A DNA stretch of 64,000 nt from Marsupella aquatica (Eukaryota > Plantae > Marchantiophyta): assembly GCA_973895155.1 (NCBI GenBank), contig OZ316896.1, positions 18,154,754 to 18,218,753 on the forward strand, read 5' to 3'. Below the pieces are notes generated by a model. That model was not told the origin of the DNA. It saw only the letters and a program-made list of their open reading frames with translations, and did not search any database. Every line of letters starts with the position of its first letter. The stretch's first letter is position 1. The position numbers and the translations under genes are program-made. This document shows positions 5,565 through 58,159 of the stretch, piece after piece.

Positions 5565-5688
5565 TCTGGCCACACTGTTCCTGCTCCTCCGGTCCTTCTG
5601 ATCTCCTCTGATGCGAAGGTTTCGCTCAGCCTTCCCAGATCGACACTGCTGTGCTCAATGAAGGATCTCACTACGGAGCAAGAGCTGA

Positions 5689-5718
5689 GGAATGGAATGG
5701 AATGGAATGGAATGGAAT
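5689..5718. repeat. (GGAAT)n microsatellite upstream of the tRNA-binding gene
   Basis: About 6 GGAAT units read directly. Confidence 0.85.
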
Positions 5719-5735
5719 TCAACTTCAATTCTGTT

Positions 5736-5744
5736 AAACCCTAA
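5736..5744. promoter_or_regulatory. Possible telo-box (AAACCCTAA)
   Basis: Exact motif about 170 bp upstream of the ATG of a translation-related gene. Telo-boxes are typical of such plant genes, but a 9-mer can occur by chance. Confidence 0.3.
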
Positions 5745-11300: not shown

Positions 11301-12403
11301 ATTTGACTCGTGGTACCAGCGCTATGCATGTGCGTACTGCCATTTCCATGTGCAGTGTGTCGAGACCAATCTCTGCTGCTATAACTTGGAGCTCGCTGAT
11401 CAGATGTACACTTTTCCGCTACCCGGGACCTTCTATGCTCTGAGATAGTGCTGTCCGTGGGCACAGGATTAGAGCTTGCTTTCGAACCCGGCTGGACAAC
11501 TTCCAGCGTTGATGATGAAGTACTTGGGTCTAAATTCCCAGGAGCATTCAAGTCCCAGGCCTTGCTTTTGTCTACCCTCACGGAAGAAAATTGAGGCTCT
11601 AGTGCAGTGGCAAGCTGGATGACTAGAGAGGGATTATCGCCAGGAGGTCGATGACATTCGTCAAACGGTTTATTGAAAGACGGTACATCCACAGTTCTCT
11701 TCGGTTCGCTGGTGGGACACAAATTAAATGCGTCCTTAAGCGGTTCCTTCCGCCATGGCCACCGCTGTTTCAGGGCTCTGGCATCTCCATGAAAAGACGA
11801 TGGGGAAATCTTCACACAAAAACTTCCATTTTCTAATTGATCATCCAGGAGAAGCACCCGCTGCCGCTGAGGCCTGCAAAAATGAAAATTTGAAGTTTAC
11901 AAGTTACATGGCTGGATAACGGTGGGCTAAGCTCTACAAACTACAGAAACGACCACGCAATGTGTGCGTTGGAGACACTTTTTTGAGAAGTAATACAAGG
12001 GAAGGGAAGGGATCCTCCGTTGAATTGACAGGACCCAACCTAAGAAATTTATTCTTAGTAGCCTATTTCGAACCGATTTAGAAAACGTCCAAGTGAATAA
12101 CAACGAACAGAGGCCCATTCATAAAATTCAACATATGCGGAATGTTTCCAAGTACAGCCAACAGAAGACTGCAAAATGAAATCTGAGACAAATAGGAAAT
12201 GTAGGTAAGAACCTTGAGAACGTCCGGATGGTATGAGAGGAATGCTGGCAAGCCCGTCGACAGGGCTGGCAGTGAGAACAGAGGATGATGGAGCAAGATG
12301 TGAAGGCAGAGGAGAAGTGCGGGGTCTGCTGCTGTGGCAGAATCTGCACGGGCGTCCCCAACCCCGGCAGGGTTAGGCTACTCCCTTTCATTACTTCACT
12401 CAT
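8318..12403 (-). CDS. PLS-class pentatricopeptide repeat protein with E/E+/DYW deaminase domain (organellar C-to-U RNA editing factor), about 1248 aa
   Basis: The 1179-aa ORF has P-L-S triplets, a PG box (EPGRSWIEV), HSEKLA, CPDCH and terminal DYW. An upstream exon 12403-12213 (MSEVMKG..., Ser/Thr/Arg-rich, transit-peptide-like) splices in frame through GT(12212)...AG(11874). Confidence 0.93.
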
Positions 12404-38237: not shown

Positions 38238-40538
38238 AAACCATATTCCGTGCTCTCTTTGAAATGCTGAGCTGCCTCGTATTCAAAACGGTTCGGATGT
38301 GATGATAGCCCGTATTATTCTTCCCACAGAGAGGCAGTTCACTTTCAAATCTTCGCATCTTATCTATGGAGTCCAGCTTGGTAAATTTTACTGAGAATTG
38401 CATCCTGCCTTTCCTGTTCTGATGGCGTCAATGCGAGGTGCCCAAACGTGGCGATTTTCGTCAACAGCAGCGAAGAAGCACATTTCATCAAAATGGATTC
38501 CGAGGCTCCAATGTCTCCGGGTTGCTTCGTCACACTTCACTTACGACATGCACATTGGATCTCGGGGATGTGACGTGGACTTAGAACCTGCTCCTGACTC
38601 GTCACGTGCTAATTTTCAGCATGGGTCGTCTCACAAATCTTTGTTTGTTGCTGTCTCGGTTTGATTGTCATCCTCCTGGAAGTGAAAGTGAATTCAGAAC
38701 TTGGGTGGCTTATTTCTTGAGGATTTGGAACCAATCCTATCCTCATACGTGAGACCCGCATCTTACCCAACAGCCATGTCCTTTCGTTCACCCTCTGAAC
38801 ATGTGTTCGCCCGTTGGTGAAAGGTTGGCATTGCCATGCACTCGGCCCTTGCTGAAGTGTTCCCGTGTGGGTGTCAGCATTTCAAGATTAACAATTGCAA
38901 GAGTACGGTTTACTGATAGGATTGTTATGGACCATACTGTGATCTCAGCATGCTAAAATGTTCGTTCTCTAATAGCCAATGTCAACAGCTGATAGTACAT
39001 GTGGAAAACTTTTCTTGTTTGTGGGACACAAGACGAGATCTTGAGGTACTAGGTTGCAGAATAGAAGGCTGTTTCCAGAAAATTCGAGAGAAGAAATTGG
39101 AGTTTGAAAGTGTCAAATTGACAGTTATTTTCATAATAAAGTAGTCCACCGATGGAAACTCAGTCATAAGAAATGCGCGCACAGGTCCAGGAAGTCCTAG
39201 CAATTGATGTTTTTAAGTGTGACGTTATAGGATTGCACGCCCAAGAAAATGAAGTTTTCAGTGTGCTATCTTCAAATCCAAGGGGGCACGAAGGTACAGA
39301 AGAAGCAGATTAAAGACTTCAGCTGAGAACAAGGCAATTTAATTGAAGCACAACAGAAACAAACTACGAGAGTAGTCCCCTTAGCTGAAGCCAACGGTCG
39401 ATGTATCTGTACATTGCACTGTTCAGCAGAGAAGAAAGTAGAGGGCAAATGGCATATTGCCACAGTCTAGAGTGTCCTGTTCCAAATGCACTGTAAATAC
39501 GAAGAGAAATTCATCGATATAATAATCCAAGTTAGTGAGACTTGGGCCTCCCTGTGACTTTAAGGGGGCCCAACTCCTTACCAGTTGATAAGTACAGGCC
39601 AATTGTGCAGCTTGCTCAAGAGGAAACAAAATTAAAAAAAAGAGACATACTGTCCAGGATAATTTGCATAATGCCCAACTGCAACGTGTCCTTGGTACTT
39701 TGTTTCATTTCAAAATACACAAACTACACTACCATATTCAATGTATTCCAGAATGCACTAAAATATACAAGAAAAATTATACTATCTTGACGTTAGCTAT
39801 CGAAGGGCCTCCTTGCCGCATTTGGTTTTTGTTGGAATAATAAATTTTTCCTTAATATCCTTGCAATGTGCACAAAACAATTCTACCATCTTATAATTCT
39901 AATGCCCTAGATGTAGTAAAGAGAAAATTCCATTCTTGTTAATATAGACCTAGTGTATATCTACCTCAACATGAGGAGAAATTTTGCCATTCCAGTGTGC
40001 ACTTAACACGGGTTTGCATATCATAAGTACAAAAACATGGAATGTGCATTTATCAATAAGAGACTGGTTTAGATCTCAGTGTTAAAATGTGAACATCTGG
40101 TGACTCCTACCTAAATTGTACATCCCTGGCCCAAATGTGATACACTATTCCATCCACATTGAAAGTTGGTCTGACGGCTGACAGAGTAAAAAAAAAGGGA
40201 TTCTTGAACAGAACCCTCCAATTTGCTGCACCTTGTATGGCAGACCTGTGCAACTGCTTTAAGTCCCTGGAATGGATGCAACATGTGGTGAGTCATTGGA
40301 AACCAATTAACTTGTATATCTTCACCTAGAATCCACTTGAAACAAATTTAACCCATCTCCGTGAACAGAGGCAATGGGTTTGAATGTACACAACTTTATT
40401 TTGGTATTGGACCGATGGTTCAGCAAGAGAGTGAGACTAAAGAAATCCTGATTTTTCAAAGGCTCTTATAAGGCTAGTGTATTGCAAGCCAAAAGATTAT
40501 TTCAAGGCTGCTGTCTTCCACCAAACAGAGCACCATGT

Positions 40539-40896
40539 TGTCATGCCGAGGGACAGTGTCTCTTATGCACATCGGCATGTCCCTCTCATGCCCGCTAGGT
40601 ATGTAGTTAGGGTTAGTGTACTACCTGAGTTAGCGACATCTTCTTGTAGCAAGTCTGGGTCGTTCTTGAAGCAAATGTGCTTGTTAGTGTGACGCCAGGA
40701 CTTTGTTTGCTTAGGGCATGTCTTTCTTTGTTGGTTTTTAGTTCTTCTTGAATCGCTGTTGACAGAGCTCAGACAGTGCTCGTCGGTTCCGTACACGGGA
40801 TTCACACAGTGATTCGTTAGATGCTCCCGGCCGATCTTGGCATCCCGCCGGTTTTCGATTCGATTTCAGTACGCTTGTTTCTCTTACGCCTTTTAT
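40539..40896 (+). repeat. Repeat A1 (358 bp), left terminus of the element
   Basis: Matches 56750-57107 with 10 substitutions by my count (~97%) and no indels. Confidence 0.95.
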
Positions 40897-40908
40897 TCAA
40901 GAAGAACT
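40895..40908 (+). promoter_or_regulatory. Putative self-priming primer-binding site
   Basis: ATTCAAGAAGAACT at the end of A1 is the exact reverse complement of AGTTCTTCTTGAAT at 40740-40753. No TGG-type tRNA PBS is present here. Confidence 0.7.
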
Positions 40909-42653
40909 GTGTCGCCGGGTTAGCGGTGAAGGGAAGAAGATCGGAGACGCTATGCTTCTCAATTGCTCGAGATAGTTGACGCTTTTCCGCTGATGCCGGT
41001 GCAATTTCTATGGAAAAACGTTGAGCGATGGGGTGGAAGTTATGGCTTTTGTGTATACACTTAAGTATATACACTTAAGTCAAACAGGACCCCCCCCCTC
41101 CCTCTTTTCCTTTGCGCTTTGCTTTCACGGTTTTTCATTTCCGGCCGCTGCCAACTGCTGCTTCAGCACCTGCCACGACCTTTTTCGGGCCATTTTTTTC
41201 GTTGTTTCTTTTGCCGGCCACGGCTGCCATCCTGCCTCGGTCGCAGCGTGACCACCTCCTCGCTGCCTCGACCACCTCGCGAATACCTCCCGAGTGCATA
41301 GGGCCGCGCGCCCGTTTCTTCCCCTCATTTTCTTTCCCTTCACCTTTCGCCTTACGTTTTAATGACTCTTTCGGGGCAGCGAGTACAAGCCGAGAGCCGA
41401 GAGGAGAAGGCACAGAGGCCTCTGAAGATTTAACGAGGGGAGGGGGAAGCGAAAGGGGGGGCGCGAAACCCTATGCTGCATTAAAGGGGGAGGGGGAGCC
41501 AAAGCATGAGTGCAGGGAGTACATTCCACTCCCTCTCTCGGGAGTCGTCCTGCAGGGCACAAAGCCCACTTTCAGCAGCATTAAAGGGGGAGCGAGAGTG
41601 CCAGGAGAGGGCACGAGGCCCTAAGCAACATTAATGCAGGGGGAGAGGCAACCAAGCATAAGCGACAGCAAGGGGGAGGGGGAGTTGAAGCGCAAGGAGG
41701 GCATGAGGCCCTATGGAGAATTAAAGGGGGGGAGTTACATTCGACTCCTTTCCCTGGAGTCCTGCATTTAAGGAGTGGATTCAGGGGGAGCTCGTAGCCT
41801 CCCTTTTCGGGAGCTCATAAGGACTAAGGAGGGCGTATGGCACGAACTACTATGCAGGGCTGGAGCAATTAAGGCCATTTTTCTTTTCTCTCGCCTCGCC
41901 TTGGGTCCCGTCTTTTTCCCCCGTTCCTCCGTGGTCGCTCGTCCGCTGCGCGAGGGTCTTTCGACTCCCATGAGGGCATGTACATAGGGCACCGCGGCCA
42001 GTCCCCACTACGACCATTTTGCTGCCGACACGCGCCCGGTCTCTTTTCCGTCTTGCTTGCTACTTCCCAGGTCCACATCGGGGCCCGATGTATACACTTA
42101 ACCGGGCCCCATGTTTATACATTTGAAAGGGCCGATGTATACACTTAAGGGGGGCCCCGGTTTACGTTTTTAAGGGCCCATTTTCCGGATTTCTTTGCTG
42201 CCGCCACGTGTCATTTGCATAAAGCTGAGGGCCCGGCATATTCATCAGACAGTCAATCCAGCAAGCACAACACCAGTACAATTGGAGTTTTTAAGGGTCT
42301 TTTCTTTGCCAACGGTTTTTCTGTGTGTTTACACATTCGACACATTTCTGCCTCGCACCGTTTATTTCCTAGCCTTGGGGCTGCCATTTCTTTTTCTTGT
42401 CAGTTTCTTTCCCATTGGCACCCAGGTGAGCATGCAGCATGTTAGCCGACGAGCCAGGAGGTAGCAGCACATCGCCACCAACACCCAGGTACCATTTACG
42501 GAGTGATCCACGACCATTGGTGCCAATTTCAACGACGTCCGCAGGCAGCAGCACCCACACCACGCAATCCTTCTGCTCAATTTGGCGGTCGCTTCACCAC
42601 TAACCCGAAGCCTGCTATCACTTCCTTGCCATTTACCCATTCTGCATTAGTGG

Positions 42654-45190
42654 TTGTTCCAGCTTCACCGACATACAGCATGGATGCTAGCCAGGTATGT
42701 GCACCACGAGGCTTTGGATGTGTATGAGCAGCACTCTCAACGGCTGCTTGCTGTCACACAATTGCCTAACCCTGCCTATGCCAGTGCAATTGCGGCTGCC
42801 TCACAATTGGCATTACAGAATGCCATTGCAGCCCATGCTGCTGCTCCTGCCACTTCCCCTCCTACTCCAGTTCCTACCAATGCGCCAGTTACTCCCACTA
42901 TCTTGGCACAGGCTACATCAGGCATTTCTCCCACCATTGATTCCCCTGCCTTTGCTGATCCAGTGGCTGAGTTTTTCCAGGTTCTTGAATTGGAATTCCC
43001 CATCAAGAGTGCTGACAAAATCATGCAGTTGGCCACCTTGTGAGGCAGCGCGATGAAACCTTGAAGATGATGTATCGCCAGCTTCTCAAGTTGAAGGAGG
43101 ACACCCAGAGCATCACTGACCTGGAAGCTGCTCATCGCTATCTTCACGCATTGGAGGGCACACCAGCTCTCCATTCGCAAGTGTTGTAGCAAGTATTCTC
43201 AGATTTTGGAGATAGCTACACCCTGCTCAATGTCTATGACACTGCTGAGAAACTTGAGTTGGCCCATGCACATTATGAGGCCAGTATTGCGCGTCCACCG
43301 CGATCCAGGTACCAGGCTGCTGCTCCTACAATGCCCACCCCTTCCCGTGTGCCACAGTATGCTTCCAAGACCAAACCAGCACATGCTGCCATCTTGCAAC
43401 TACTATGGAAATCCTAATCACAAGGCTAATGAATGTGATATTGTTGCTGAGGACCTGTCTTGTGATTTTTGCGGGAAAGTGGGCCACTTGGAGGCAGTTT
43501 GTTTTGCCAAATTCCCAGAGCGGAAGCAGCTACGACAGCAGGCCCCTCATCCTGCTCCTGCTTCCACTCCCCCACCAGCTAGGAGGGCTCCTACTGCATC
43601 CACTGCTCCTCCTTCCAGTGGCAAAGCACCCGGTGCTAACAAATTGCCCAAGCAGCCACAGAAGCAACCAGCTCAGAAGGAGGCTCACAACGCACAGGCA
43701 ACTCAACTCCAGTCTCTGACTCATGAGGTTGAGTCCTTACGTGCCCAACTTGCCAACATCAAAGGCAAGTCCACTGCCTTTGCTGGTCCTTCTCAACCGG
43801 CTGGTCACGTGCAACCCATCCCTGGCCCAGGCACCACTAACAATTCAGCACCTCTACCCCGCTCTTTCTATGGCTTGCCATTTGATGCTCATATGGGTGA
43901 GTGTGTGCTATCCTCTGCTCCACAGCCTGGCCTTATAGCAGAATTTTCAGATTCATTCTGCCCTTCCTATTTTGCTTACCAGCAGGCCAGTGCTGCCTCC
44001 CGTATTGCTCCCACACGCCGCATTGTACAGGCTGATGGTCTTGCTACTGGTCCTATGACTAGAGCCAAGGGAGCTCGGGCTGTCATGCCCCAATCTTTTC
44101 AGCCCCTCACACTTGCTGAAGAGCGCACCTTGTTGGCAAGGGGGGAGGGAGCTGCAGCCACATCCATTCCACCACGAGGTGCTGCTGACATTTCACAGGG
44201 AGTTGTTTCTCCTGAGCTGCTTGAGCATTTCACCTCTGGTATGGCACAAAGGATTCTTACAACTCCACTTTTCAGTTGCCATGATTTACAGTTGGATGCT
44301 AGAGCTGTCATCAGAGGGCTAGAGGGTTCACTGCATTCTTCATCAGCCCCGGTGACACCGGTTTTGGAGGTCCAATCTCATGTACATACTGGACCTTCTT
44401 CTTCTCCTTTACATGTTTCCACTAGTTTGGCTGCCCCAGTACCGATTGCTGCTGATTGTGTGACCAGAGCTACACTTGATTCTGGTCATGCTGCTCTATC
44501 TTTCCTGGCTATGTTGTTGAGTGGGAAGACCGTGGCCACTAACTCCCTTCACAAGGTACCTCATCATTTGCCAAAAGTGATGCCTAGTGACAGGACTTTA
44601 GTTTCCACCACCATTGCCATTGTTGACAACAGGAATTCAGCGGTCAAGTTGGAGGGTCACATTCCTCAGGTGGTCATGCTAGACACAGGCGCTCAACCAG
44701 TGATATTGGGCATTCAGTTTGCCAAGAAGATGGGACTGCTGACTGATCATTTACAGCAATCCAGGTGGCACATTCGGACTGCTAGTGGCACTGTAGAGGA
44801 TGTGCTGGGTGAGAGTTCTACTTTACTCACTCTCACTTTTAATGGAGGTACAGATCAGGAATTGCAATTCCCAGTCAGATGTTTGGTTACCAATGCCACT
44901 ACGTATGATGTGCTCATTGGCCAGGAGGCTTTGTTCCCACCAAGTTTTACCATTGACAACTGGCATGAGCACGCATACTACAGAGTTGATTGGCATACGG
45001 ATGGCTCACACTTGGGCTACATTCCACTTGATTTGCATGGTGCCCATACACCTATGGCTCACCACTGTGTGTTGAAAGCAGTGCACACAGCTACCTATGT
45101 CAATCACCCATTGCAGGATTGGATTGAGGAGGATGATGATGAGGTGGCTGCTGCACATGCTGTTGCACGTATAGCAGCACTTTTCCATCA
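42654..45190 (+). pseudogene. Gag (two CCHC zinc knuckles) and aspartic protease of the Gypsy-type element, disrupted
   Basis: Gag-like block LAT../RQRDETLKMMYRQL; knuckles CNYYGNPNHKANEC and CDFCGKVGHLEAVC; protease VVMLDTGAQPVILG...YDVLIG. Frameshifts near 43040, 43385 and 45190, and a TAG at 43187. Confidence 0.85.
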
Positions 45191-45339
45191 GCGTGGATCA
45201 TCAACCAGAGGTGGTACAACGGCTCCAAGCAGCCCATGGACCTTTGGTGGCTGCATTGCACAAATTTGAGGACCTTGGGCAGCACAATGGACAACCAATA
45301 GCCCCAATCTTGAGTGCACCAGTTACATGGACTCCTCCT

Positions 45340-46290
45340 CCGGATGGCCTTACATTGCTTGAGCTTTTTGGTGGCATTTCTACAGGCCTGGAAGCTCTCC
45401 TACAGTCTGGCATGGTGGTGAAGCAGTACATCTACGTGGACATTGATCCAGGTGCAAGGCAAGTGGCTGAATCCCGTCTGCTGGAATTTTCAGAGCGATT
45501 TCCCCAGCAGTTTCCACACAGTGCATGGAAGTCTGCATTTTCTTTCTTTCCTCCAGATATCTAGCTTGTCCAGCACCGGCACTTAACCCTTCTTGGCTCC
45601 CTTGATTTGATCATAGCTGGTTGGGAATGCCAAGGGTTTTCAGCTGCTGGTCACAGTGCTAGACTGCATGATTCTCGTTCTGGCCTTTTCACAACATTGG
45701 TTCAGATTCTCACCTGGGCTCAATCCCTTTATCCTGCTGTTGATTATATCATTGAGAATACTCCATCTCAGTTTGACCAACGTCCACAGGTCAAAGAGGA
45801 TTTTAGTGTGGTCCAGCACTACTTGGGACCACCCCTTCTCATTGATGCAGTGCACTATGGTTCTTATGCACATCGTCTTCGTAACTTTTGGACTAACCTT
45901 GCACCACCTTCCTTGTTGGAGTTAGCTCTTCACCACACATCCAGGGACACTAACCTCACAGTGGACCAGATTTTGGATCCTGACAGTTCTTGCCAACCGG
46001 TTACACGGCAAGAGCCAGCACCTTGGTATCCAACTAATACCATTGGACAGCCCCGTGCTGCTTGGCCTACATTTGTGTCCTTTCCAGGTGCACATGCTTT
46101 TCAGGGTGATGGTCCTGGCCTAGTTTATCGACATTCTACTGGTACATGGGATGAACCTAGTCCTGAGGAGAGAGAACGGGCTATGGGCTTCCAACCCGGT
46201 ACTACAGGTCACACCAAAATCACCAGGCTGGCCAGGAATGCTTCACTTGGCAGGGTAATGGATCTTAATGCTCTCACTTGGCTTCTGGTC
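45340..46290 (+). pseudogene. DNMT3-like C5-cytosine DNA methyltransferase domain within pol, with one in-frame stop
   Basis: Motif I LLELFGGISTG, II YVDID, IV LIIAGWECQGFS, SRSGLF, VI IIENT, VIII AHRLRNFWTN, IX ERERAMGF, X RLARNASLGR. The ORFs at 45193 and 45607 are in the same frame, separated only by TAG 45562-64. Confidence 0.9.
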
Positions 46291-46629
46291 ACTTGCATCC
46301 TTTTTCAGATGTACTTTCATCCAGCATCAGGAGTTCCAGCCCTACCACTCCATGGTGCTGCTACATGGCATCCAGACCAGGTGCACTTACCTCTGTCCAA
46401 CACTCACCACTTCAGTCCAAGTGTTGGGGGGGAGGAGGTCCCTTGTAATGTGGCTGACATTATTTCTGAGTTTCATGGTGTGGATCAGACCAAAGCAACA
46501 GATACAGTAGGCCTTGGAGAGGCCTCATCACCTTATCAGCAACATGCTAGCAGCTTGGACAGTGGAGAGGCTGGCACTTCTGGCTCTTCAAGCACGAGTA
46601 CATTAGGTCCTATTCCTAGTGTTGCCAAC

Positions 46630-47585
46630 TACACATTCATCATGGGCAACCACCTGAGTAAAAGACAGAAGGACCAGCTGCTGAATTTTCTCCTCAAGCA
46701 TGAGAATGTGTTTGCTTTCTCTATGAAGGACTTGGGTAAGTGCAAGACTATGCAGTTCTCCATTGAGTTGGCTGATGAAACACCTATCTTCAGGCGGAGA
46801 CACCGTTTGAGTAAGCATGAGTGGCAGCTGATGGATAAGAGATGCCAAGAGCTCTATGAAGCTGGTCTTATTCAGCCATCTACATCAGATTTTGCAGCAG
46901 CTACAGTGATGCCAGCAAAGAAGGATTCCAGTGGATTGTGGACAGAGAAGCGCATGTGTGGGGACTACAGGCCACTGAACCTGGTCACACCCCAAGACAG
47001 GTATCCCATGCCACGGCCAGAGGAGCTATTTGACAGCATTGGAGACTCAGACATCTTCACTCTTGTGGATCTAAGGCAAGGCTTTAACCAGATTTTGTTG
47101 CTTGCAAAGGACCGCAAGAAAACAGCTTTCCATGGTAGTAACCAACTATGGGAGTGGTTGGTGATGCCATTTGGCTTGAAGAATGCGCCCATATTCTTTC
47201 AAAGAGTCATGGACCAGGTTCTTCAAGGTGCTGAGTTTCTGAAATGCTACATTGATGATGTGTTGGTCCACAACAAAGGATTTGACCAGCATCTACTTGA
47301 CCTTGAGGAGCTATTCATGAGGCTTAAGAAGGTGAACCTAAAGATACACCCCAAGAAGTGTGAATTTGCTGTCAGATCAGTAGTATACCTTGGGCACCGC
47401 ATTCTTCCAAATGGAACCATGGCTCACTGGGCCAAGGTGGTATCCATCTTGGTAATGCCCACTCCTACCGATGTTCACACTTTGAGGAGTTTTATTGGGT
47501 TGTGCAATTACTACCGGATCTACATCAAAGATTTCAGTACCATTGCACACCTATTGTATGCTTTGTTGAAAAAGAATGTGACTTG
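46630..47585 (+). pseudogene. Gypsy-type reverse transcriptase, in frame with the methyltransferase, interrupted by the Copia insertion
   Basis: KRMCGDYRPLN, DRYPMP, VDLRQGFNQI, VMPFGLKNAP, CYIDDVLV, KKCEF, YLGH, LRSFIGLCNYYR. Confidence 0.95.
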
Positions 47586-47929
47586 TGTTAGATATTGCTC
47601 TAGTCTTGTGACTCATGAGCTAACTACAGTTAGGCTAACTCGGGTTAGGACTTAGCTAATGTTAGCGGTAGTGCTATTGTGCATATAGCCAGGGCTGATG
47701 CCAGACCCTGGTGGAACTTAGGCTCATTGTTACGGAGCTAGTTGAGAGATAGGAAGAGCTTGTGTTGTGGATGCTTGGTATGGCCGGTCGGCCTAGAGTG
47801 CAGTAAAGCTCTTGTGTGTTCCCGTGGACGTAGCCTCATGTGGAGGTGAACCACGTATCTCTCTGTGTCGACTCTTGTGCGTTGGATGGTTCATGGGCTT
47901 GCCGTTGCGAATGTCGTCTATGCTCAACA
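47586..47929 (+). repeat. Copia 5' LTR
   Basis: TGTTAGATATT...GCTCAACA, matching 54152-54495. Confidence 0.96.
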
Positions 47930-47931
47930 AG

Positions 47932-47943
47932 TGGTATCAGAGC
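47932..47943 (+). promoter_or_regulatory. Copia primer-binding site (initiator tRNA-Met)
   Basis: TGGTATCAGAGC two bases after the 5' LTR. Confidence 0.92.
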
Positions 47944-49669
47944 ATGCCTGGGAGGTGACGAGGTTTTTTCGTGACAGGTTTTTCCAGCGTTCATTGTCGG
48001 TGGCACATTCGGAGTTTCGTCGCATGAAATTCGAATGTGTGTGGCTGAGCGGATAGGTTAGTGAGAGGGCTTTCTAACGGTGGTTAGAACTCGCTGATCG
48101 GTGTCCGTGGTGCGGAGGAATTGAAGTTTGCGTCGTTCAGATTTTATTCGTGTTCGACGGGATTTTGGGGGAGAGACCAGAGTTTGCGTTGTTCAACAGT
48201 GTGAGTTGTGCGGTGTTCGGGGGATCGCACATTATAGCTTAAGTTGAAGGTTGAAGCGAGCTGGTCATTTCGGTAGCTGGATTGCTGTCGAGTTGTTATC
48301 GAGTGCGTCGTGACGAGTGAAGGAGGCGTTCAGGTTTTTTCACAAGCTATGGAGCTTGTTCTCATCTGAACCGGTTTTCTCTTCGTGCCGTCCGACTCGA
48401 TGGAAGAGACGCGAAGTGCCACGGCTCAACGGTTTGATCGCGGTGAGGCGGTCGTTTTGAGCCCGGGATTGGCACTTGACGCGGAGTGAAGACGTTGCGG
48501 CGGAAGTTTTTACTCTGTTGGAGCTGCAGACCATATCGGTGTAATTCAACAACATTTCTTGTCGGCGGAGTTCACTTTTCTCGTGAGGAACAGTGGCTGA
48601 TTAGGTGAGTAATCGGCATTTGTTAATTAAGGGTCATTTTTTGCCTTTAAGGGGGTTACTTGGGGCCCCTTTTGTGTATACACGAGGTGTATACACACAC
48701 CTCGTACCCGGCCCCCCCGTGACCCCGATCGTCGTCTCCCCCCTCCCCCGCACCCCGTATTTGCAGGCGCGCGGCAGCCCTGCGCAGCGCCGGCCGGCGC
48801 GAAAGTGGCCGCTCAGCTGCTGCTGCCTCTTTCTTTCTTTTTTCGCCCCGCCCTATCCCGCTGCCACGCCTTAGGCGCACACGCCCTCCCTGCCAGCTTG
48901 CGACCTGCCGGTCGCCAAGCCATCCCCCCTGACCGTCATCTTTCGCGACCGCGACCCCGAGTTGCTGCCGGCGCGCGGCTGTGTTAGCCTGCGACCCTGC
49001 GCCCTGCGCCTGAACGCGCCCCTTTTGCTGCCGGTCGCGTACACGGTAATACTAGTACTCGGCCCGGCCATACGCCCTCCCTATACCCTACCTGGCCCGC
49101 CTCGCGTATAGGCGACGCGGATGCGCCTTTGGTTATACCTGTATTTTTAGGATTTAGGGCACTTTGCACCCCTTTAGGGCCATTTTTTGTCTTTTTCTGG
49201 CTGGCTCTTCTATTGACTGTCCCGGGACCGGTGACCCTCCGTTTTAACCGCTCCAACAGGGGGAACGCCCCCTGTGAGACCTGTCGGACTGTGCGGGAAT
49301 ATTCCCGAAAAACAGAGAGCTGTTTTTTGGCCGTCCGACAAAGATTCCGTCCGCCGAACGGTAACTTTTTTGGTTCTTTTTCGGTGAGGACGTTGCCACT
49401 GGAGTTAGCAACGCGGCGCACCGATCACATCGCGATTCCGACGACGGGTTGTACTTGGTATTTCCGTTATTCTCCGAGGTGGTTAAAACGGGGGAGTTTC
49501 CCAAGGTTTTACCCACCCCGACCGAAATTTGAATAACTTTTCCATCGAATTTCGATTTTGATTTCGGCTTTCAGTATTGGACTCCTAGCTTTGTGGGCTA
49601 CGCGGCGGTGTTGAGTTTTGAGTTTTATGAGAAGTTTCGAAAAAAGACGTTTTTTCGTGATTGTTTCAT

Positions 49670-50725
49670 ATGAGTGACTTAGAGGATACTGGAAGAATTG
49701 GCGTCGGTGGAGCTTCAGGATCACGAAGGTCAGATGGGGAGTCTGAGGAGGAGCTGCTACCTTTTGAGGAGGAACAAGTAACACCGGTACGATCACCGGT
49801 GCGGCGTGCAGTGGAGGAAGCTGTACTACTACCAGAGCTGTTGGTAGTTGGGAAGAAGAGGGGGATGGCTAGATTCGGAGGAGTAAAGTTTGAGGTGGAG
49901 AAGTACGATGGTCGTACTGATTACTTGCTGTGGGAGAAGCAAGTGAAGGGTGTTCTTCGGGCCATGGGCTTAGCTCATCTGCTCTCTTCGCGAGAGCAAT
50001 ATGATGGAGAGGAGGAGATCTCAGAAAAGCAGTGGAGACAGGAGCAGGTGATTGCTGTTAATGCAGTGATGCTTTATTTGAAGCCGCACATCATCAAACA
50101 GCTGAATGATTATGCGGATTGCGCATCACTATTCAAGGCTCTAAGAGAGAAGTATTACCGGGAAGATGCGTCAGACCGGCTATACAAGAAGTCTCTCTTG
50201 ATGAACCTCAGGCTCAAGGAAGGGAGCAAGATGCAGGATCACCTGGATGAATTTGACAGTCTAGCGGTGGATCTGTCAAACCTGGGAAAAGGAGTTGAAG
50301 ATGAGGATAAGGCCTTGCTTCTACTAAGCTCCTTACCGCCGTCATATCAGGGCTTGAAATAGGTGCTCTTGTATAGAGATCTGAAGTCCATTTCGTATAA
50401 TGAGGTGGTGAGCTCATTACTGTCTGATGATGCTCAGAAGAAGCTGGGTCAATCACAGACAACATCTTCTTCTGGCACTGCGCTCAATGTGAACAGGGGA
50501 AGAGCAGCGCAGCGCACAAATGGACAGAACAGGTTTAGATCTACATCACGGGGGAGATCTAAATCCAGAGGGAAATCGCAAGAGAGGAAGCCTCTTGCAT
50601 GTTGGAATTGTGGCAAGCCTGGCCACATGAAAAGGGATTGTCGAGTAAAGGTCCCTACTGCCTCTGCTAACGCGGTATCAAGCTCGCATGAGGTAGATTT
50701 ACTCGATGATGATGACATATTGTGA
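49670..50725 (+). pseudogene. Copia gag with a premature TAG at 50360
   Basis: KFEVEKYDGRTDYLLW, LLLSSLPPSY, zinc knuckle CWNCGKPGHMKRDC. The frame continues through the stop. Confidence 0.9.
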
Positions 50726-53700
50726 TGTCAAGGTTATGCTCTCAACGTAGTGTCAAATCCAGGTAGTGATGACTGGATTCTAGATAGTGCATGTACTTTT
50801 CACATTTGCTCTAGGAGAGATTTTTTCAGTTCTTACACGGTTTCCAACGGGTCAGTGTTGATGGGAAATGGAATCCCATGTCAAGTTGTTGGACTTGGAT
50901 CTGTAAGATTTCAGATGTTTGATGGTGCTGTGAGAACGTTGAGGAATGTAAGACATATTCTCAACATGATGAAAAATCTCATTTCACTTGGAGTTTTAGA
51001 AGCAAATGGCCATCAGTGGAGTTCTGCTAATGGTGTCCTTCAGGTTTCAACTGGTACTAAAGTTGTATTGAAGGGAAAGAGACATTGCAATCTATACATT
51101 TTGGAGGGCAGTGTAGTCAGTGATGAAGCCAATGCAACCTTATCTCATGAGGAGACGGCCCGGCTGTGGCACTTCTGTTTGGGCCACATGAGTGAAAAAG
51201 GTTTGGTTATTCTTCAGAAGAAAGGATTACTTTCTAATTTGCAGTCTTGTAAGTTAGAATTTTGTGAGCACTGTGTCCTAGGGAAGCAGCACAGGAAACC
51301 CTTCGGAGTTGGAACTCACACCAGCAAGGAGGTACTTGAGTATGTACATAGTGATGTGTGGGGTCCAGCCCCTACTCCCTCACATTCTGGACGGTTATAC
51401 TATGTCACGTTTATAGACGATTACTCAAGGTATGTGTGGATATACTTTCTACACAATAAGTCTGATGTTTTTGCCATTTTTAAGGAGTGGAAAGCCCAGG
51501 TTGAGAATCAGACTGGTAATAAGGTGAGATATCTTCGATCGGATAACGGCGGTGAATACAGTTCCAGGGAATTTGGAACGTATTGTAAGGAGCAAGGGAT
51601 TACCCGCCATCTCACAACAAGTTATACTCCTCAGCAGAATGGTGTTTCTGAGAGACTCAACCGAACACTATTGGACCGCTCGAGGAGTATGTTGAGTCAA
51701 TCATGCTTACCACATGAGTTTTGGGCTGAAGCTGTTAACACTGCAGCTTATTTGGTAAATTTTTCTCCATCCAGTTCTATTGGATTCAAGACGCCATATG
51801 AAATGAGGTACGGGCGTCCAACAGATTATTCACATCTGAGGATTTTTGGATGTGATGCTTATGTGCTTACACCTTCCCAGCTTCGATCCAAGCTGGAGTC
51901 CAAGTCGAATAAGTGCATTTTCCTTGGCTATCAGAAAGGTGTGAAGGGTTATAGGTTATGGGATCCAGTAACCTGTAAGCTAATTGTCAGTAGAGATGTG
52001 TCCTTTAATGAATCCAGATCATCAAAGGAGGGGGAGAGTTCTCAGGACTCCCATACTGACAAGGGGAAATCTCCCATCCCGGACCGGGTTGAGGGGGAGA
52101 TTAGTCATGATGCAGTTCATGACAGGAAAGATGGAGAAGCTCCGAGCTTGGAGCTGGTTCCTGTGATGGAACAAGAGGAGCAAATTGTTGCTGGGGTACC
52201 TCAAATTCAACCAGTAGCAGCAATAGATCAGCCTGAGTCATCTACTAGAAGAACTTCCAGTCGTTCTACTAGAGCTCCTACCAGGTATGGTCAATGGGCA
52301 GACTCATCTAAGCTAGATGATATTGACATTGCACCTGATGAAGATGATATGGCTTTGATCTTGGAAGAAAGAGAGCCTTCTTCGTATAGTGAGGCTTGTG
52401 CTTCAGAGCAGAAGCATGAGTGGAATGCAGCAATGCAGAGGGAGTTGCAATCTTTGAGTGACAACAAGACATGGGAGCTAGTGGAGCTTCCAAGAGGTCA
52501 GCAAGTGGTGGATAGTAAGTGGATTTACAAGTTGAAGGACAGTCCTTCAGAGGGTGGAGATAAGATCTACAAGGCAAGGCTTGTTGCCAAGGGGTTTACT
52601 CAGGAGAAAGGAGTCGATTACAATGAGGTCTTTTCACCGGTGGCTAAGTATTCCACAATTCGGATCTTGTGTCAGCTTGTTGTGTTTTTCAATCTGGTGA
52701 TGGATCAGATGGATGTTGTTACTGCTTTTCTCTATGGCAACTTGGAAGAGTTGATCTTCATGAGACAGCCACTAGGCTTTATGAAGAAGGGCCAAGAGAA
52801 CTTAGTTTGCAGATTGCTCAAATCCTTGTATGGATTGAAGCAGTCTCCCAGACAGTGGAACAAGCGGTTTGATGATTTCATGCTTGCTCAAGGTTTTACA
52901 AGGATGGTGTATGATCCTTGTGTGTATACGAAATCAGTCAAGAATGATGTATTTGGTTTCATCATTCTGGTGATCTATGTGGATGACATGCTGATTGTGG
53001 CTAAAGATCAATCTGAGGTTGACAGTCTCAAGGCGAAATTGAGTGCTGAATTCAGGATGAAGGATCTTGGTAAGGCCAAGAGGATCTTAGGGATGGAGAT
53101 TTTTAGGAACTCTGATACTGGACAGTTGTGCTTGAGTCAAGGCCAGTATGCGAGGAAAGTACTTGCACGATTCAACATGGAGAACTGTAAGCCAGTGAGT
53201 ATTCCTTTAGCTTCACATTTTAAGTTATCATCGGCTTTCTCTCCTACGGATGCTGTGGAGAAAGGTTTGATGGCTAAGATTCCTTATGAGAAGGCAGTAG
53301 GCAGTCTGATGTATTTGATGACTTGTACTAGGCCTGACTTAGCCCTAGCGATGGGCAAGGTTAGTAGATTCATGTCAAATCCAGGGAAGGTACATTGGGA
53401 AGCTGTGAAATGGATTCTCAGGTATGTGAAGGGAACACAGGACTATGGATTACTATTTGATAACAGATCAAATAGAACATTAGTTGGCTATGTAGATTCT
53501 GACTATGGAGGCTGTCTGGATACAAGGAGATCTACAACTGGGTTTGTATACACTCTTGGAGGAGGATGTATCAGTTGGAAATCTACCTTGCAGAAGTGCA
53601 TATCTCAGTCTACTACAGAAGCAGAGTATGTTGCAGCAGCAGAAGCTGCAAAGGAAGCAATTTGGTTGGATAAGTTGATTGCGGAGATGGGTTTAGAGCA

Positions 53701-53944
53701 TGGAAAAATGACTCTAAACTGTGATAGTCATAGTGCTCTTCACTTGGCTGCTAACCAGGTGATGGATAGCAGGGTGAAGCACATTGATATCAGGTACCAT
53801 TTTATCAGGCAAGCAGTGTCTGATAAAACTTTTGAGCTAGTCAAGATTGATGGAAAGCTCAATCCCGCTGATGCTTTTACCAAAGTGATTCCTTTGGAGA
53901 GTTTCTCAAGACACCGTGCTACTTTGCAGGTTTTGCAGTTGTAG
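50726..53944 (+). CDS. Copia pol (protease, GAG-pre-integrase, integrase, RT, RNase H), open frame
   Basis: WILDSACTFH, VHSDVWGP, LRSDNGGEY, PQQNGVSER, YKARLVAKGF, QMDVVTAFL, YVDDML, YVDSDYG, TEAEY, KHIDIRYHF, NPADAFTK. Confidence 0.95.
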   Translation, partial: CQGYALNVVSNPGSDDWILDSACTFHICSRRDFFSSYTVSNGSVLMGNGIPCQVVGLGSVRFQMFDGAVRTLRNVRHILNMMKNLISLGVLEANGHQWSSANGVLQVSTGTKVVLKGKRHCNLYILEGSVVSDEANATLSHEETARLWHFCLGHMSEKGLVILQKKGLLSNLQSCKLEFCEHCVLGKQHRKPFGVGTHTSKEVLEYVHSDVWGPAPTPSHSGRLYYVTFIDDYSRYVWIYFLHNKSDVFAIFKEWKAQVENQTGNKVRYLRSDNGGEYSSREFGTYCKEQGITRHLTTSYTPQQNGVSERLNRTLLDRSRSMLSQSCLPHEFWAEAVNTAAYLVNFSPSSSIGFKTPYEMRYGRPTDYSHLRIFGCDAYVLTPSQLRSKLESKSNKCIFLGYQKGVKGYRLWDPVTCKLIVSRDVSFNESRSSKEGESSQDSHTDKGKSPIPDRVEGEISHDAVHDRKDGEAPSLELVPVMEQEEQIVAGVPQIQPVAAIDQPESSTRRTSSRSTRAPTRYGQWADSSKLDDIDIAPDEDDMALILEEREPSSYSEACASEQKHEWNAAMQRELQSLSDNKTWELVELPRGQQVVDSKWIYKLKDSPSEGGDKIYKARLVAKGFTQEKGVDYNEVFSPVAKYSTIRILCQLVVFFNLVMDQMDVVTAFLYGNLEELIFMRQPLGFMKKGQENLVCRLLKSLYGLKQSPRQWNKRFDDFMLAQGFTRMVYDPCVYTKSVKNDVFGFIILVIYVDDMLIVAKDQSEVDSLKAKLSAEFRMKDLGKAKRILGMEIFRNSDTGQLCLSQGQYARKVLARFNMENCKPVSIPLASHFKLSSAFSPTDAVEKGLMAKIPYEKAVGSLMYLMTCTRPDLALAMGKVSRFMSNPGKVHWEAVKWILRYVKGTQDYGLLFDNRSNRTLVGYVDSDYGGCLDTRRSTTGFVYTLGGGCISWKSTLQKCISQSTTEAEYVAAAEAAKEAIWLDKLIAEMGLEHGKMTLNCDSHSALHLAANQVMDSRVKHIDIRYHFIRQAVSDKTFELVKIDGKLNPADAFTKVIPLESFSRHRATLQVLQL

Positions 53945-54140
53945 TGCAAGTAGAGTTATTTAGCAATGTGTGACTATTTGTATATGGATTACTCATTCCT
54001 GTTAGGTTACGGCTTAGTTCTAGTTAACCCTTAGTTAACCCTTGTGGTTTTTAGGGGGAGACCTGGTTTGGTGATTGTCTAGAACTTCCCGCTGAGGATT
54101 CCATATGGTAGCATTTAGTCTAGTCCCCAAGACAAGAGTC

Positions 54141-54149
54141 AAGGGGGAG
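54141..54149 (+). promoter_or_regulatory. Copia polypurine tract
   Basis: AAGGGGGAG just before the 3' LTR. Confidence 0.88.
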
Positions 54150-54151
54150 TT

Positions 54152-54495
54152 TGTTAGATATTGCTCTAGTCTTGTGACTCATGAGCTAACTACAGTTAGG
54201 CTAACTCGGGTTAGGACTTAGCTAATGTTAGCGGTAGTGCTATTGTGCATATAGCCAGGGCTGATGCCAGACCCTGGTGGAACTTAGGCTCATTGTTACG
54301 GAGCTAGTTGAGAGATAGGAAGAGCTTGTGTTGTGGATGCTTGGTATGGCCAGTCGGCCTAGAGTGCAGTAAAGCTCTTGTGTGTTCCCGTGTACGTAGC
54401 CTCATGTGGAGGTGAACCACGTATCTCTCTGTGTCGACTCTTGTGCGTTGGATGGTTCATGGGCTTGCCGTTGCGAATGTCGTCTATGCTCAACA
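54152..54495 (+). repeat. Copia 3' LTR
   Basis: Matches 47586-47929 with 2 substitutions. Confidence 0.96.
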
Positions 54496-54500
54496 ACTTG

Positions 54501-56534
54501 GACATGGAGTACAGATGCTGAGGCAGCATTTGCCACTTTGAAGGAGAAGCTCTCAGAATACCCGGTGCTGAGAAGACCTGATTTCAGCAAGGTCTTTGTG
54601 CTACACACAGATTGGAGTGCCCTTGGGATTGGTGCCATTCTGGGCCAGCATGATGAGGAAGGTAAAGAGTACGTCATTACCTATGCATCCAGGAGCAACA
54701 ATCAGGTAGAGAGTCATTATTCTTCTTATGAGGGTGAATGCCTTGCTGTTGTGTGGGCTGTCATACATTATAGGCCCTACCTCTATGGGACCAGGTTTGT
54801 TCTCTACACCGACCACCAGCCCTTGAAGTGGTTGATGACCAACGACAAGCTTACTGGCAAGCTTGCTCGTTGGGCGCTCATACTCCAGGAGTATGATTTT
54901 GAGGTAATTCATAGGCCTGGTGTGACACATCAAAATGCTGACACTATGTCCCGCAGCCCTTTGATTACCTCTGATGATTCCTCAGATGCACGACAAGATT
55001 TTGACCAGGTTTCTATCCTGCCTACATTTAATGCATCGACCTATCTTGCTTTGCTGCCATGCTATGTTGTTGACCAACCTGTGGTGGACATATGGGAGGA
55101 CAGCGACACTCTGAGATTTCTGCAGCATGGGGAGTACCCCACACATGTTACTGCTGCCCAGAGAGACCAAATTCAGCAAAGGTCCAAGCGCTACTTGTGG
55201 AAGGGAGATCATCTCATGCGCTGCTTGCCAGACAGGGAAGTGGTGGTTCCACCTATTCATGAGAGGGTTGGCCTTATCCGTAAGGTACATTCTGAGCTTG
55301 GTCATTTTGGTGTTAAGAGGACTTATAGCCTCTTGGTCCCTCATTATCATTGGAGAGGCATGCATGGCCAGGTTTGAGATGTCATTGCCCGGTGTGAATA
55401 GTGTGATAGGGTGAGGACTTCCTTCACATCTCGACAACCCACACTTCATCCACTCCCTATTCAGGGCATGTTTTATCGCTGGTCATGTGATTTGGTTGGA
55501 GAATTACCCCTCACGTCTCGGGTAATCTCTACATCATGATCATGATAGAGCATTTCTCCAAGTGGATAGAACTTGTGGCATTGCCGGATAAGACCTCCCA
55601 TAGCACCAGCCAGGCATTCCTGCAACAAGTTCTCAGCCGCTTTGGAGCTTGTGCAGAATGTCTCACTGACCAGGGCTCAGAGTTTAGAGGAGAGTTCCAG
55701 GAGTTGCTTGATCAGGCCCTCATTGATCATCGCCAGACATCACGAGATCACCCACAGGCAGATGGCTTGGCAGAGCGCATGGTTCAGACATGCAAGAAGG
55801 GTCTCCGGAAGATTTGCCTCACCAAAAACAAGGAGGATTGGGACCTGGCCTTACCCTACATTGCCATGGGGTATAGGATGTCTAGACATGCATCATTGTC
55901 TAACTTTTCTCCCTACTTCTTGTTGTTTGGTCGTCACCCAGTTCCACCTTCTGCTATTGCTGCTCACATGCTTCAGGTGGTGGACTTGGATTCAACTGTG
56001 ACTTGGTCTGATGTGATCTTTGAGAGGGCTGCCCTATTCAGGAGGGTTATGCCCATGGCCATGGAGAATTTGGCCATTGCACAACACAGGGACACACTGC
56101 ATTATGCACACACACGAGGGGGCACTTTTCAGCCCAAGGTCAGGAAGTTTGATGTGGGAGATTTTGTGTACTTGCAGCGGCAAGCTAACGACACCCTGGA
56201 CACCTCTACCAGTCGTACTATTCTCAGGGTTAAAGCTATTCGACCGTCTGGAGTGCTAGAGTTACAAGGGGCAGATGGGCGCACAATTGCTGACAATGCC
56301 AAGAATTGCGCCCCTTGTCATCTGCCTAACCTAGATCCCACCATTGTGACTTCTACTTGGATTCCACCTATGGATTACCCTTGCAAGGTGTGTTTGCGAA
56401 TTGATGATGCTGACCAGATGCTGCTGTGTGACAATTGCAATGGAGGGTACCATCTTTTCTGCCTTCGGCCTGAATTTACCCAGGTGCCAGAAGGGTTATG
56501 GTTTTGCCCTTCCTGTGCTCCACGTGCTACCTGA
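54501..56534 (+). pseudogene. Gypsy RNase H, H2C2 zinc finger, DDE integrase and C-terminal PHD finger, disrupted
   Basis: LHTDWSALGIGAIL, YSSYEGECLAVVW, YTDHQPL; HSELGHFG...C..C; SCDL / TDQG / GLAERM; PHD CKVC...LLCDNC..GYHLFCL...WFCPSC (56382-56516). Stops at 55375 and 55399 and a frameshift near 55520. Confidence 0.93.
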
Positions 56535-56571
56535 ATTTTCTTCAGCCCTCCTTTTGGCTGTGGTCTGGGGG

Positions 56572-56747
56572 GATACAGAGGTTTACACCTCCACTACGTA
56601 CATAACACTTCATTTGCTTTTTCTTGGCACTTGTGAATGTGATTGAACTTTTTCTATGCATGTTGGTTGCTAGCAGCTTGTACATATGCCTTGCCGGTGA
56701 CAGTATGTTTTCGATACACTATGGCTTCGATACTATATGTCACGACA
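56572..56747 (+). repeat. Repeat B1 (176 bp), preceded by a G-tract
   Basis: Matches 57108-57283 with 6 substitutions (~97%). GGGGGG at 56567-56572. Confidence 0.95.
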
Positions 56748-56749
56748 GC

Positions 56750-57107
56750 TGTCATGCCGAGGGACAATGCCTCTTATGCACATCGGCATGTCCCTCTCAT
56801 GCCCGCTAGGTATGTAGTTAGGGTTAGTGTACTACCTGAGTTAGCGACATGTTCTTGTAGCAAGTCTGGGCCGTTCTTGAAGCAAATGTGCTTGTTAGTG
56901 TGACGCTAGGACTTTGCTTGCTTAGGGCATGTCTTTCTTTGTTGGTTTTTAGTTCTTCTGGAATCGCTGTTGACAGAGCTCAGACAGTGCTCGTCGGTTC
57001 CGTACACGGGATTCACACAGTGATTCGTTAGATGCTCCCGACCGATCTTGGCATCACGCCGGTTTTCGATTTGATTTCAGTACGCTTGTTTCTCTTACGC
57101 CTTTTAT
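56750..57107 (+). repeat. Repeat A2 (358 bp)
   Basis: Second copy of 40539-40896. Confidence 0.95.
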
Positions 57108-57283
57108 GATACAGAGGTTTACACGTCCACTACGTACATACCACTTCATTTGCTTTTTCTTGGCACTTGTGAATGTGATTGGACTTTTTCTATGCATGTT
57201 GGTTGCTAGCAGCTTGCACATATGCCTTGCCGATGACTGTATGTTTTCGATACACTATGGCTTCGATACTATATGTCACGACA
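57108..57283 (+). repeat. Repeat B2 (176 bp), right terminus of the element
   Basis: Second copy of 56572-56747, ending ...CACGACA and followed by ATGT. Confidence 0.95.
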
Positions 57284-58159
57284 ATGTTGTTGAGTTTGAA
57301 AATGATTTTTGGGGGTCCACAACAAAAAGGACATTTTAACTTGAGCGCAACGCCCAATTGTTGTGTTCAAGTTGGATTCTGTGACCCCAGTGCATTTTTT
57401 AAGGATTTCACTTTTTCGCCAAGGTGGCAAATGTAAAGTGTGTCAAGGAGGAGATGCTCAAAAGATTCTGTATTCAATTATTTTCCTGACCGTCAGATCT
57501 CCCTAGATTTAAGGCGGATCATTAGATTCTGGCTAATGGGGCCTGGGATTAGGTGGAACACTGGCTAATGAGACAGCAAAAAAGTAGCGAATTTAGCCAA
57601 AAGTGGCAAAGTATTTTTGGGGAGGTGGAATCTAGCAAATTTTTGCCACTAAAAAAAACACTGACTGTGACCCTGAAGTATTATACATTGAGCACAAAAG
57701 GAGAAAAAATTATGAATCACATAACAACACCAACATTCAAACACAATGCTCATTTTTGAACTCAACGCCTTGCAAATAATCAAAACTCAAATACAACTGT
57801 CTTTGAATGAACCCAGAGATTGCAGCAAAACTCAAATACAATACCCCAGGTGCACTACTCGAACACTGCGCCATGACATTATGTTGGGGGCAGCGGCCGA
57901 AAATTGAAACAGAGTGTCATGATTGGCCTTGTGTTGGGAGAAACCCTCACTATTCGAAAACTGTGCCATGATGTCATGTTTCGGAAGCATGGCGGTGGGA
58001 AAGACTCTAGTGAAACCAATGTTTGGGGAAGACACTAGTGTAATTAAAAGAAAACATACGAGCCTGAATGCAAACATTCTTTCAATGTTAAAAGAAATGA
58101 TGACTCACCCTTTCCATATGCAAATTTTGGTGGGGTCCCACATAACTCTCTAGAGGTTT

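Follow-up and report, generated by a model that had tools for sequence, protein, structure and literature searches.

How can a retrotransposon of the Ty3/gypsy type, which encodes a DDE integrase, come to carry split direct repeats in place of two complete long terminal repeats (LTRs)? The question is raised by an element in a 64,000-nt stretch of Marsupella aquatica DNA (contig OZ316896.1 of GenBank assembly GCA_973895155.1, forward-strand positions 18,154,754 to 18,218,753). This whole stretch is called the window and its numbering is used throughout. An initial annotation, made from the letters, had described the repeat layout of the element as A1(358)-internal-B1(176)-GC-A2(358)-B2(176), with TG...CA termini and a flanking 4-bp duplication, ATGT; all of this was exact, and the coordinates were confirmed (Table 1). 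The reading favoured here, to which we give a probability of roughly 0.6, is that the LTR of its cDNA has the form B-gc-A, and that the DDE integrase cuts CA-GC-TG inside the upstream LTR, not the cDNA ends. The element itself belongs to a Ty3/gypsy family that carries a DNMT3-like domain and an integrase with a PHD finger.

Split repeats in the window element and its relatives

Without a nested Copia element, the window element was about 9.8 kb long. A1 and A2 had 10 differences across 358 bp, and B1 and B2 had 6 across 176 bp. A 9820-base contig of run X2 covered the junction of the left flank and A1 (40480-40568, 30 bases in A1) with 0 differences; run X2 may share the window's source sample, so this support is not fully independent. 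Loose contig ends before 40539 (13 contigs in run X1 and 16 in X2) were mutually unlike (agreement 0.44-0.49), which is consistent with many insertions that begin at TG. The right flank (57380-57700) was a high-copy repeat in all four runs.

Pfam domains for aspartyl protease, RVT_1, RT_RNaseH, Integrase_H2C2 and rve were found in the element, and their order (protease, reverse transcriptase (RT), RNase H, DDE integrase) and the Ty3-type RT were those of Ty3/gypsy. A tyrosine recombinase was not found by Pfam in any of 62 six-frame open reading frames (ORFs; 33 in the window element without the Copia, 11 in relative L048 and 18 in relative L081). The initial annotation had listed the Gypsy-type RT, RNase H and DDE integrase and the missing recombinase correctly, but had overlooked a methyltransferase, a PHD finger, the nested Copia and the fact that the primer site is self-priming.

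By an integrase-PHD alignment scan of metagenomes, 549 relatives were confirmed, and the best 80 were kept with their flanks. Fourteen of these loci, without a classifiable 3′ end, were left out, and the other 66 represented 46 distinct right flanks. A viral contig set was also scanned and no relative was present. The 3′ end was B-nn-A-B in 27 of the 46 distinct relatives and B alone in 19 (two of the latter, L041 and L059, are doubtful). The 5′ A was visible in 18 loci (16 elements), and B was upstream of it in none of the 18, with >1000 bases visible in 17. Both ends were resolved in 14 elements, of which 11 were A-internal-B-A-B and three A-internal-B. The ordinary form AB-internal-AB, with the two complete LTRs of Ty3/gypsy elements, was seen neither among these 14 nor in the window; the initial annotation had named it among the findings that would overturn its reading. 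Exact 4-bp duplications flanked 10 of the 14, in 9 different sequences (those of L053 and L074 were read by eye). The repeats of the 27 B-A-B loci were 75-97% identical, and each locus had its own flank. A sister family, with 55% integrase identity and otherwise unrelated repeats, had the same end, a polypurine tract (PPT) followed by B-CA GC TG-A-B-CA (L082), and carried a methyltransferase as well (L081). These results indicated that the split-repeat layout is family-wide and is accompanied by different 4-bp duplications, as the initial annotation had expected of further copies.

The possibility that an ordinary LTR element had been rearranged once, or misassembled, was weighed against these data. 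It had no positive support, although the short-read assemblies of the relatives can mis-join repeats. Recurrence of the layout in distinct loci with their own flanks and in the sister family, with no ordinary copy among those resolved, leaves it practically excluded, and the same layout has been reported independently in Klebsormidium (PMC5890265, legend of Fig. 4c).

Reverse-transcription signals and the two joints

No TGG-type tRNA primer site was found after A1, and the site there does not start with TGG. It can form a stem of 12 Watson-Crick pairs with a sequence inside A1, a length reached by 1 of 1000 shuffles, with a mean pairing probability of 0.96. The primer site of the window differed from that of the relatives at two positions, and A was changed to match on the other side of the stem. 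Among the relatives, complementarity reached 11-12 of 12 nt in 10 of 16 elements, at 119-146 nt from the A end. L081 had a 13-nt primer site of unrelated sequence, again complementary to A (0 of 1000 shuffles). A TATA-like box lay ahead of the predicted primer by 32 nt in L017 and L021 and by 29 nt in L081. From these pairings, self-priming like that of Tf1 is predicted in three families with different primer sequences.

In each of the three families B was preceded by a G-run. Under the established scheme of LTR reverse transcription, the positions of the PPT and the primer site set the limits of the cDNA. With a PPT before B and a primer site after A, the cDNA would therefore read B-gc-A-internal-B-gc-A, and the reverse-transcribed LTR is likely B-gc-A, which agrees with the PPT and primer positions proposed in the initial annotation. 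The predicted cDNA ends (the start of B and the end of A) carried no conserved TG/CA.

The B/A joint was constant. Its spacer was 2 nt long in 27 of 27 relatives (GC in 9, AC in 9, GT in 6 and AT in 3), and all four forms could be derived from GC by C-to-T changes on either strand (deamination in the CHG palindrome CAGCTG). The background mutation rate at CWG was 0.26. Selection on the spacer was considered, since it was mutated at 21 of 54 positions against this background (p 0.03), but this was too weak to claim. The joint core CACGACA-GC-TGTCA was common to the window, L062 and L081, and the element held this single GACAGCTGTC. In each of the three families a CG lay three bases ahead of the CA at the predicted cut. 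Two candidates for alternative cuts, four B-A-B copies that stopped 15 nt short, at a CA further upstream, and a shorter unit in B1 of two copies, were both explained by loss of a tandem unit.

The A/B joint of the 27 relatives fell into seven classes (blunt 10, shared AT 8, deletions 2, one added base 2, others 5), which were assigned by eye and in which the distinction of shared AT from blunt could partly be explained by ATAT slippage. A form 1 nt shorter than that of the window was present in contigs of all four runs. The A/B class showed no clustering on an integrase DNA tree (14 changes against a shuffled mean of 14.9, p 0.35), but on the same tree two traits of A that are inherited did cluster (3 vs 9.1 changes, 0/1000; 2 vs 4.7, p 0.003). 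The tree was star-like and poorly resolved (7 of 43 branches starred), and the clustering of these control traits indicated that it has power nonetheless. Since the B/A joint was constant and the A/B joint variable and unclustered, the B/A joint is templated and the A/B joint is likely made anew at each insertion; a newly made A/B joint had been part of the initial annotation.

These joints also bear on replication in the manner of PAT/Ngaro elements, in which the transcript would extend into B2, both joints would be templated by the parent and the layout would be inherited. The layout is identical to that given for PAT/Ngaro elements in passages of PMC7192593 and PMC5890265. Against this, a minus strand primed at the A end would start there and B2 would therefore go uncopied from the RNA, the tree showed inheritance of A indels but not of the A/B joint, the ORFs lacked a tyrosine recombinase, and the varied 4-bp duplications with TG...CA ends indicate a DDE integrase. 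Such inheritance is highly improbable.

Proposed internal cleavage and its alternatives

If the integrase cuts inside the LTR, the cycle would run as follows. Transcription would begin inside A1, and the first ~12 nt of the RNA would pair with the site after A1 and prime as in Tf1. Judged by the positions of the PPT and the primer, the cDNA would be B-gc-A-internal-B-gc-A, with ends lacking the TG/CA attachment (att) signal. Staggered cutting of CAGCTG, behind CA on each strand, would produce two ready-processed ends with 2-nt GC overhangs, equal to the 3′-processed ends of retroviruses, and insertion would then give the TG...CA ends and 4-bp duplication that the inserted copies display. The original cDNA ends would be joined imprecisely, either before insertion (as a 2-LTR circle) or after it (by repair), leaving a variable A/B joint. 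A cut at the upstream site and joining of the free ends would yield exactly A-internal-B-gc-A-B, in which B2 would be a by-product, dispensable for the next cycle. Joining before insertion, joining after it and a jump of the RT (see below) would look alike in genomes.

B-only copies were dispersed on the integrase tree (13 changes vs 14.8 shuffled, p 0.20), and they were not older than B-A-B copies by mean end branch (0.073 vs 0.078, p 0.61). An origin at insertion, from one-LTR circles or by annealing across a repeat, fits these copies better than slow recombination; assembly collapse is a possible further source. The circular assembly of L081 (127-base terminal overlap) was considered as evidence of a circle and is read instead as an assembly effect in which A1 and A2 were collapsed.

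In the initial annotation the substrate was a covalently closed 2-LTR circle, opened at either att site without bias. All the evidence for a B-gc-A LTR and for a de novo A/B joint suits that version too. Of the two alternative products it predicted, A-internal-B was found (3 of 14), but the mirror form A-B-A-internal-B was seen in 0 of the 14 resolved relatives and in 0 of 12 two-repeat copies (11 loci and the window; for the 11 loci, p 0.0005 if the cut is unbiased). If annealing across A turned every mirror copy into A-internal-B, the ratio 27:19 would fit 1:1 (p 0.15), and the similar age of B-only and B-A-B copies would agree. However, if a closed circle were cut at the second site, the mirror copy would be inserted whole, leaving nothing that could be resolved. 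Unbiased opening is thus improbable. Without a free circle, cutting of a linear cDNA followed by repair of the joint after insertion would give the same product. In the absence of the mirror form the cut must be asymmetric, and internal cleavage therefore needs an extra asymmetry that has no explanation.

That asymmetry might instead come from reverse transcription. By means of a short shared sequence, the plus strand could switch from the template's right end to its left end and recopy B, thereby making the A/B joint, and integrase nicks and 3′ processing would finish the ends. The internal site would still be used, a free circle and host repair would be unnecessary, and the one-sided product would follow the direction of synthesis, which could account for the missing mirror form. 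In the window family and its relatives A ends with AT and B starts with AT, and 8 of 27 joints shared AT; in L081, CACTTGA is shared by the start of B and the end of A taken together with the primer site. Imprecise joints with added bases are also compatible with template switching. But the commonest class of joint was blunt (10 of 27) and the joint of L044 had lost about 56 bases of B, and repair fits both at least as well. A jump of the RT is possible but unlikely.

Several points weigh against internal cleavage, in addition to the unexplained asymmetry, the scoring by eye and possible slippage at the A/B joint and the poor resolution of the tree. The evidence is genomic sequence; the cDNA, circles, transcript ends and enzyme activity of the scheme are predicted. 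All 80 loci came from short-read metagenome assemblies of few samples. In four of the 14 resolved relatives the duplication was not exact (one matched at 3 of 4 positions, one at 2 of 4 and two not at all). The self-priming match was not above shuffles in 6 of the 16 relatives, which were old, mutated copies, and no clear TATA box was found in the window's A or was visible in its family. The 5′ end was visible in 3 of 19 B-only copies vs 11 of 27 B-A-B copies (Fisher p 0.11), and the test on B-only copies is thin.

To our knowledge, the integrase signal of all textbook LTR elements and retroviruses lies at the ends of the cDNA. For the integrases of foamy virus and HIV, cutting at a circle junction has been reported as a side route. 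If internal cleavage is true, junction-type cleavage would be this family's only route, and the family would offer a natural system in which to test circles as genuine integration precursors. Split direct repeats would not be diagnostic of a tyrosine recombinase, and the case suggests how such layouts arise. LTR finders would detect only the 5′ A and the displaced 3′ A, and nothing in A-internal-B copies; the family is therefore likely mis-annotated in bryophyte genomes. As a guess, the element's own methyltransferase might methylate the CG beside the cut site and so set which site is cut. This would give a concrete, testable job to retrotransposon-borne DNMT3, whose role is called unclear in a passage of PMC5890265.

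Coding region, hosts and known systems

The features of the element are collected in Table 1. Given its stops and frameshifts, the window copy is dead.

Table 1. Features of the window element and its flanks (window positions)
Feature	Position	Strand	Remark
Left target-site duplication ATGT	40535..40538	+	Same 4 bp at both flanks
Repeat A1, 358 bp	40539..40896	+	Begins TG; predicted site of transcription start and R-U5
Predicted self-primer, 12 nt	40740..40751	+	Exact complement of primer-binding site; predicted RNA 5′ end
Primer-binding site	40897..40908	+	Directly after A1; complementary to 40740-40751
Degraded gag-like region and aspartyl protease (LDTG)	42651..45269	+	Cys/His knuckle-like motifs; stops and frameshifts; PF13975 E 4e-7
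C5 cytosine methyltransferase domain (PF00145), DNMT3-like	45175..46300 (end approximate)	+	Between protease and RT
Ty3/gypsy-type RT	46600..47585 (start approximate)	+	C-terminal side lost to Copia insertion; RVT_1 E 1e-27
Nested younger Ty1/copia, 6.9 kb	47586..54495	+	Splits RT-RNase H region; outside the Gypsy system
RNase H and beginning of integrase zinc-binding domain	54501..55374	+	
DDE integrase core and C-terminal PHD finger	55375..56534	+	Stops; frameshift near first Asp motif; rve E 1e-10, PHD E 1e-11
G-run PPT	56567..56572	+	Directly before B1
Repeat B1, 176 bp	56572..56747	+	Ends CA; predicted start of U3
Palindromic B/A joint CACGACA-GC-TGTCA(T/C)	56741..56755		Predicted internal integrase att site
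GC spacer	56748-56749		Between B1 and A2
Repeat A2, 358 bp	56750..57107	+	
A/B joint	57107..57108	+	Carries one G of the PPT in the window copy; varies between copies
Repeat B2, 176 bp	57108..57283	+	Ends CA; predicted to be the left cDNA end moved to the right
Right target-site duplication ATGT	57284..57287	+	

PF00145 was found in the window, L048 and L081, and a methyltransferase domain was present in 13 of the 14 resolved relatives. The best PDB matches of the L081 methyltransferase were DNMT3A/B/C (E 2e-8), with DRM2 far weaker. In the window, motif IV reads GWECQG, with the catalytic Cys retained and Pro replaced, and there is an in-frame stop at 45562. GWECQG, with the conserved Pro changed to Glu, occurred in nearly all close-clade copies (window 45565-45650 and 30+ relatives), and the sister clade had GWPCQG. 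The top PDB match of the L081 pol was Ty3 Gag-Pol (E 7e-100), and foamy-virus integrase was the best integrase match after Ty3. Within the catalytic triad of the integrase (alignment columns 104-139), 34 residues separated the second Asp from the Glu, and Ty3 has one more. The stretch upstream of the protease is labelled gag from its position only. In protein P0032, of a GC-rich-looking relative, the methyltransferase was followed directly by integrase and PHD finger with RT absent between them; this is a different domain order or a deleted form.

The nested Copia had 344-bp LTRs (47586-47929 and 54152-54495) with 2 differences, a 5-bp duplication (ACTTG) and a tRNA-type primer-binding site, TGGTATCAGAGC. 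It is young, has a long intact pol ORF (50726-53944) and was very abundant in the runs examined. Elsewhere in the window, an intronless PPR gene on the minus strand (8318-11896; 1192 aa, PLS-type, with the DYW end of the RNA-editing factor type) is the origin of a 303-bp repeat array. The window contained no tRNA gene.

Named homologues were found in Calypogeia fissa (88% integrase identity), Sphagnum magellanicum, Coleochaete scutata and Klebsormidium nitens. Together with the PPR gene, these homologues suggest that the host is a bryophyte. In a quick integrase tree (26 rows), the window grouped with the Calypogeia proteins (99), and its branching relative to three K. nitens proteins was not settled. 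One locus, L033, contained both a sister-clade element (5358-8843) and a close-clade integrase (10001-10999), and the two clades therefore coexist in one host; Calypogeia fissa likewise has both. L081 (1-9285) and L082 (1-2905) are contigs of a cyanobacterial genome record that carry a retrotransposon of plant type, in which long ORFs are open and GWPCQG is intact, most likely through eukaryotic contamination of that assembly. An intact copy could well be obtained from them. At even odds, these elements form an old streptophyte-wide lineage, from charophyte algae to liverworts and mosses, in which the att site has moved to the middle of the LTR, internal double-strand cleavage at CA-GC-TG is obligatory, all copies are circularly permuted cDNA and the choice between the two sites may be made by the DNMT3-like enzyme of the element through methylation of the neighbouring conserved CG.

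The initial annotation had supposed the layout to be new, which did not hold. The legend of Fig. 4c in PMC5890265 (de Mendoza et al. 2018) describes KnitGypsy-Dnmt3 of Klebsormidium nitens, with Gypsy domains and DIRS-type repeats, that is, A-coding-B-A-B. The window element has the same Gypsy domain set, the same repeats and a Dnmt3-related, unrearranged C5 methyltransferase domain in its polyprotein, and differs in that its host is a land plant and not an alga. The layout and the family type are thus already in print, and the window element is a land-plant member of the Gypsy-Dnmt3 type. The K. nitens integrase-PHD proteins were 50-55% identical to that of the window, and they may belong to KnitGypsy-Dnmt3 itself. 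Term searches of the text and supplement of PMC5890265 returned nothing on how the KnitGypsy-Dnmt3 layout arises, and no primer site, PPT, att site or target duplication for it. Later works (PMC12344493 and bioRxiv 2026.05.21.726589) touch on streptophyte Gypsy-DNMT3 in passing, in the portions available. The REXdb paper had no match for PHD, methyltransferase or Klebsormidium. Searches on split direct repeats with integrase or gypsy and on bryophyte DNMT-Gypsy, which exclude subscription papers and Repbase reports, gave no title or abstract on mechanism; comparative evidence on mechanism (the self-priming site, the PPT, the constant B/A joint and the variable, non-inherited A/B joint) was not found in the literature searched.

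Tf1/sushi elements and plant Tcn1, as described in passages of PMC7175516, PMC6317226 and PMC2864245, likewise lack a tRNA primer site, and the initial 11-13 nt of the predicted RNA are complementary to the site that follows U5. In the window element the corresponding self-priming is predicted from complementarity. Those elements differ in having two complete terminal LTRs and an integrase chromodomain, whereas a PHD finger, a methyltransferase and permuted repeats are found here. PAT-like and Ngaro elements share the split direct repeats A1-ORFs-B1-A2-B2, and a methylase domain occurs in DIRS and PAT, according to passages of PMC7192593; they have a tyrosine recombinase and a DIRS-type RT, with no DDE integrase or protease, in contrast to the rve domain, Ty3-type RT, protease, TG...CA ends and 4-bp duplications of the window element. 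As reported in part of PMC1180852, the integrase of prototype foamy virus cuts both strands of a palindromic LTR-LTR junction and leaves 5′ overhangs of 2 nt. By analogy, the DDE integrase of the window element would act on a palindromic CA...TG as well, with overhang ends equal to processed ends. In foamy virus, however, the palindrome arises by joining of DNA ends and the provirus has whole LTRs, whereas here the palindrome is templated inside the repeat and the inserted copies are permuted.

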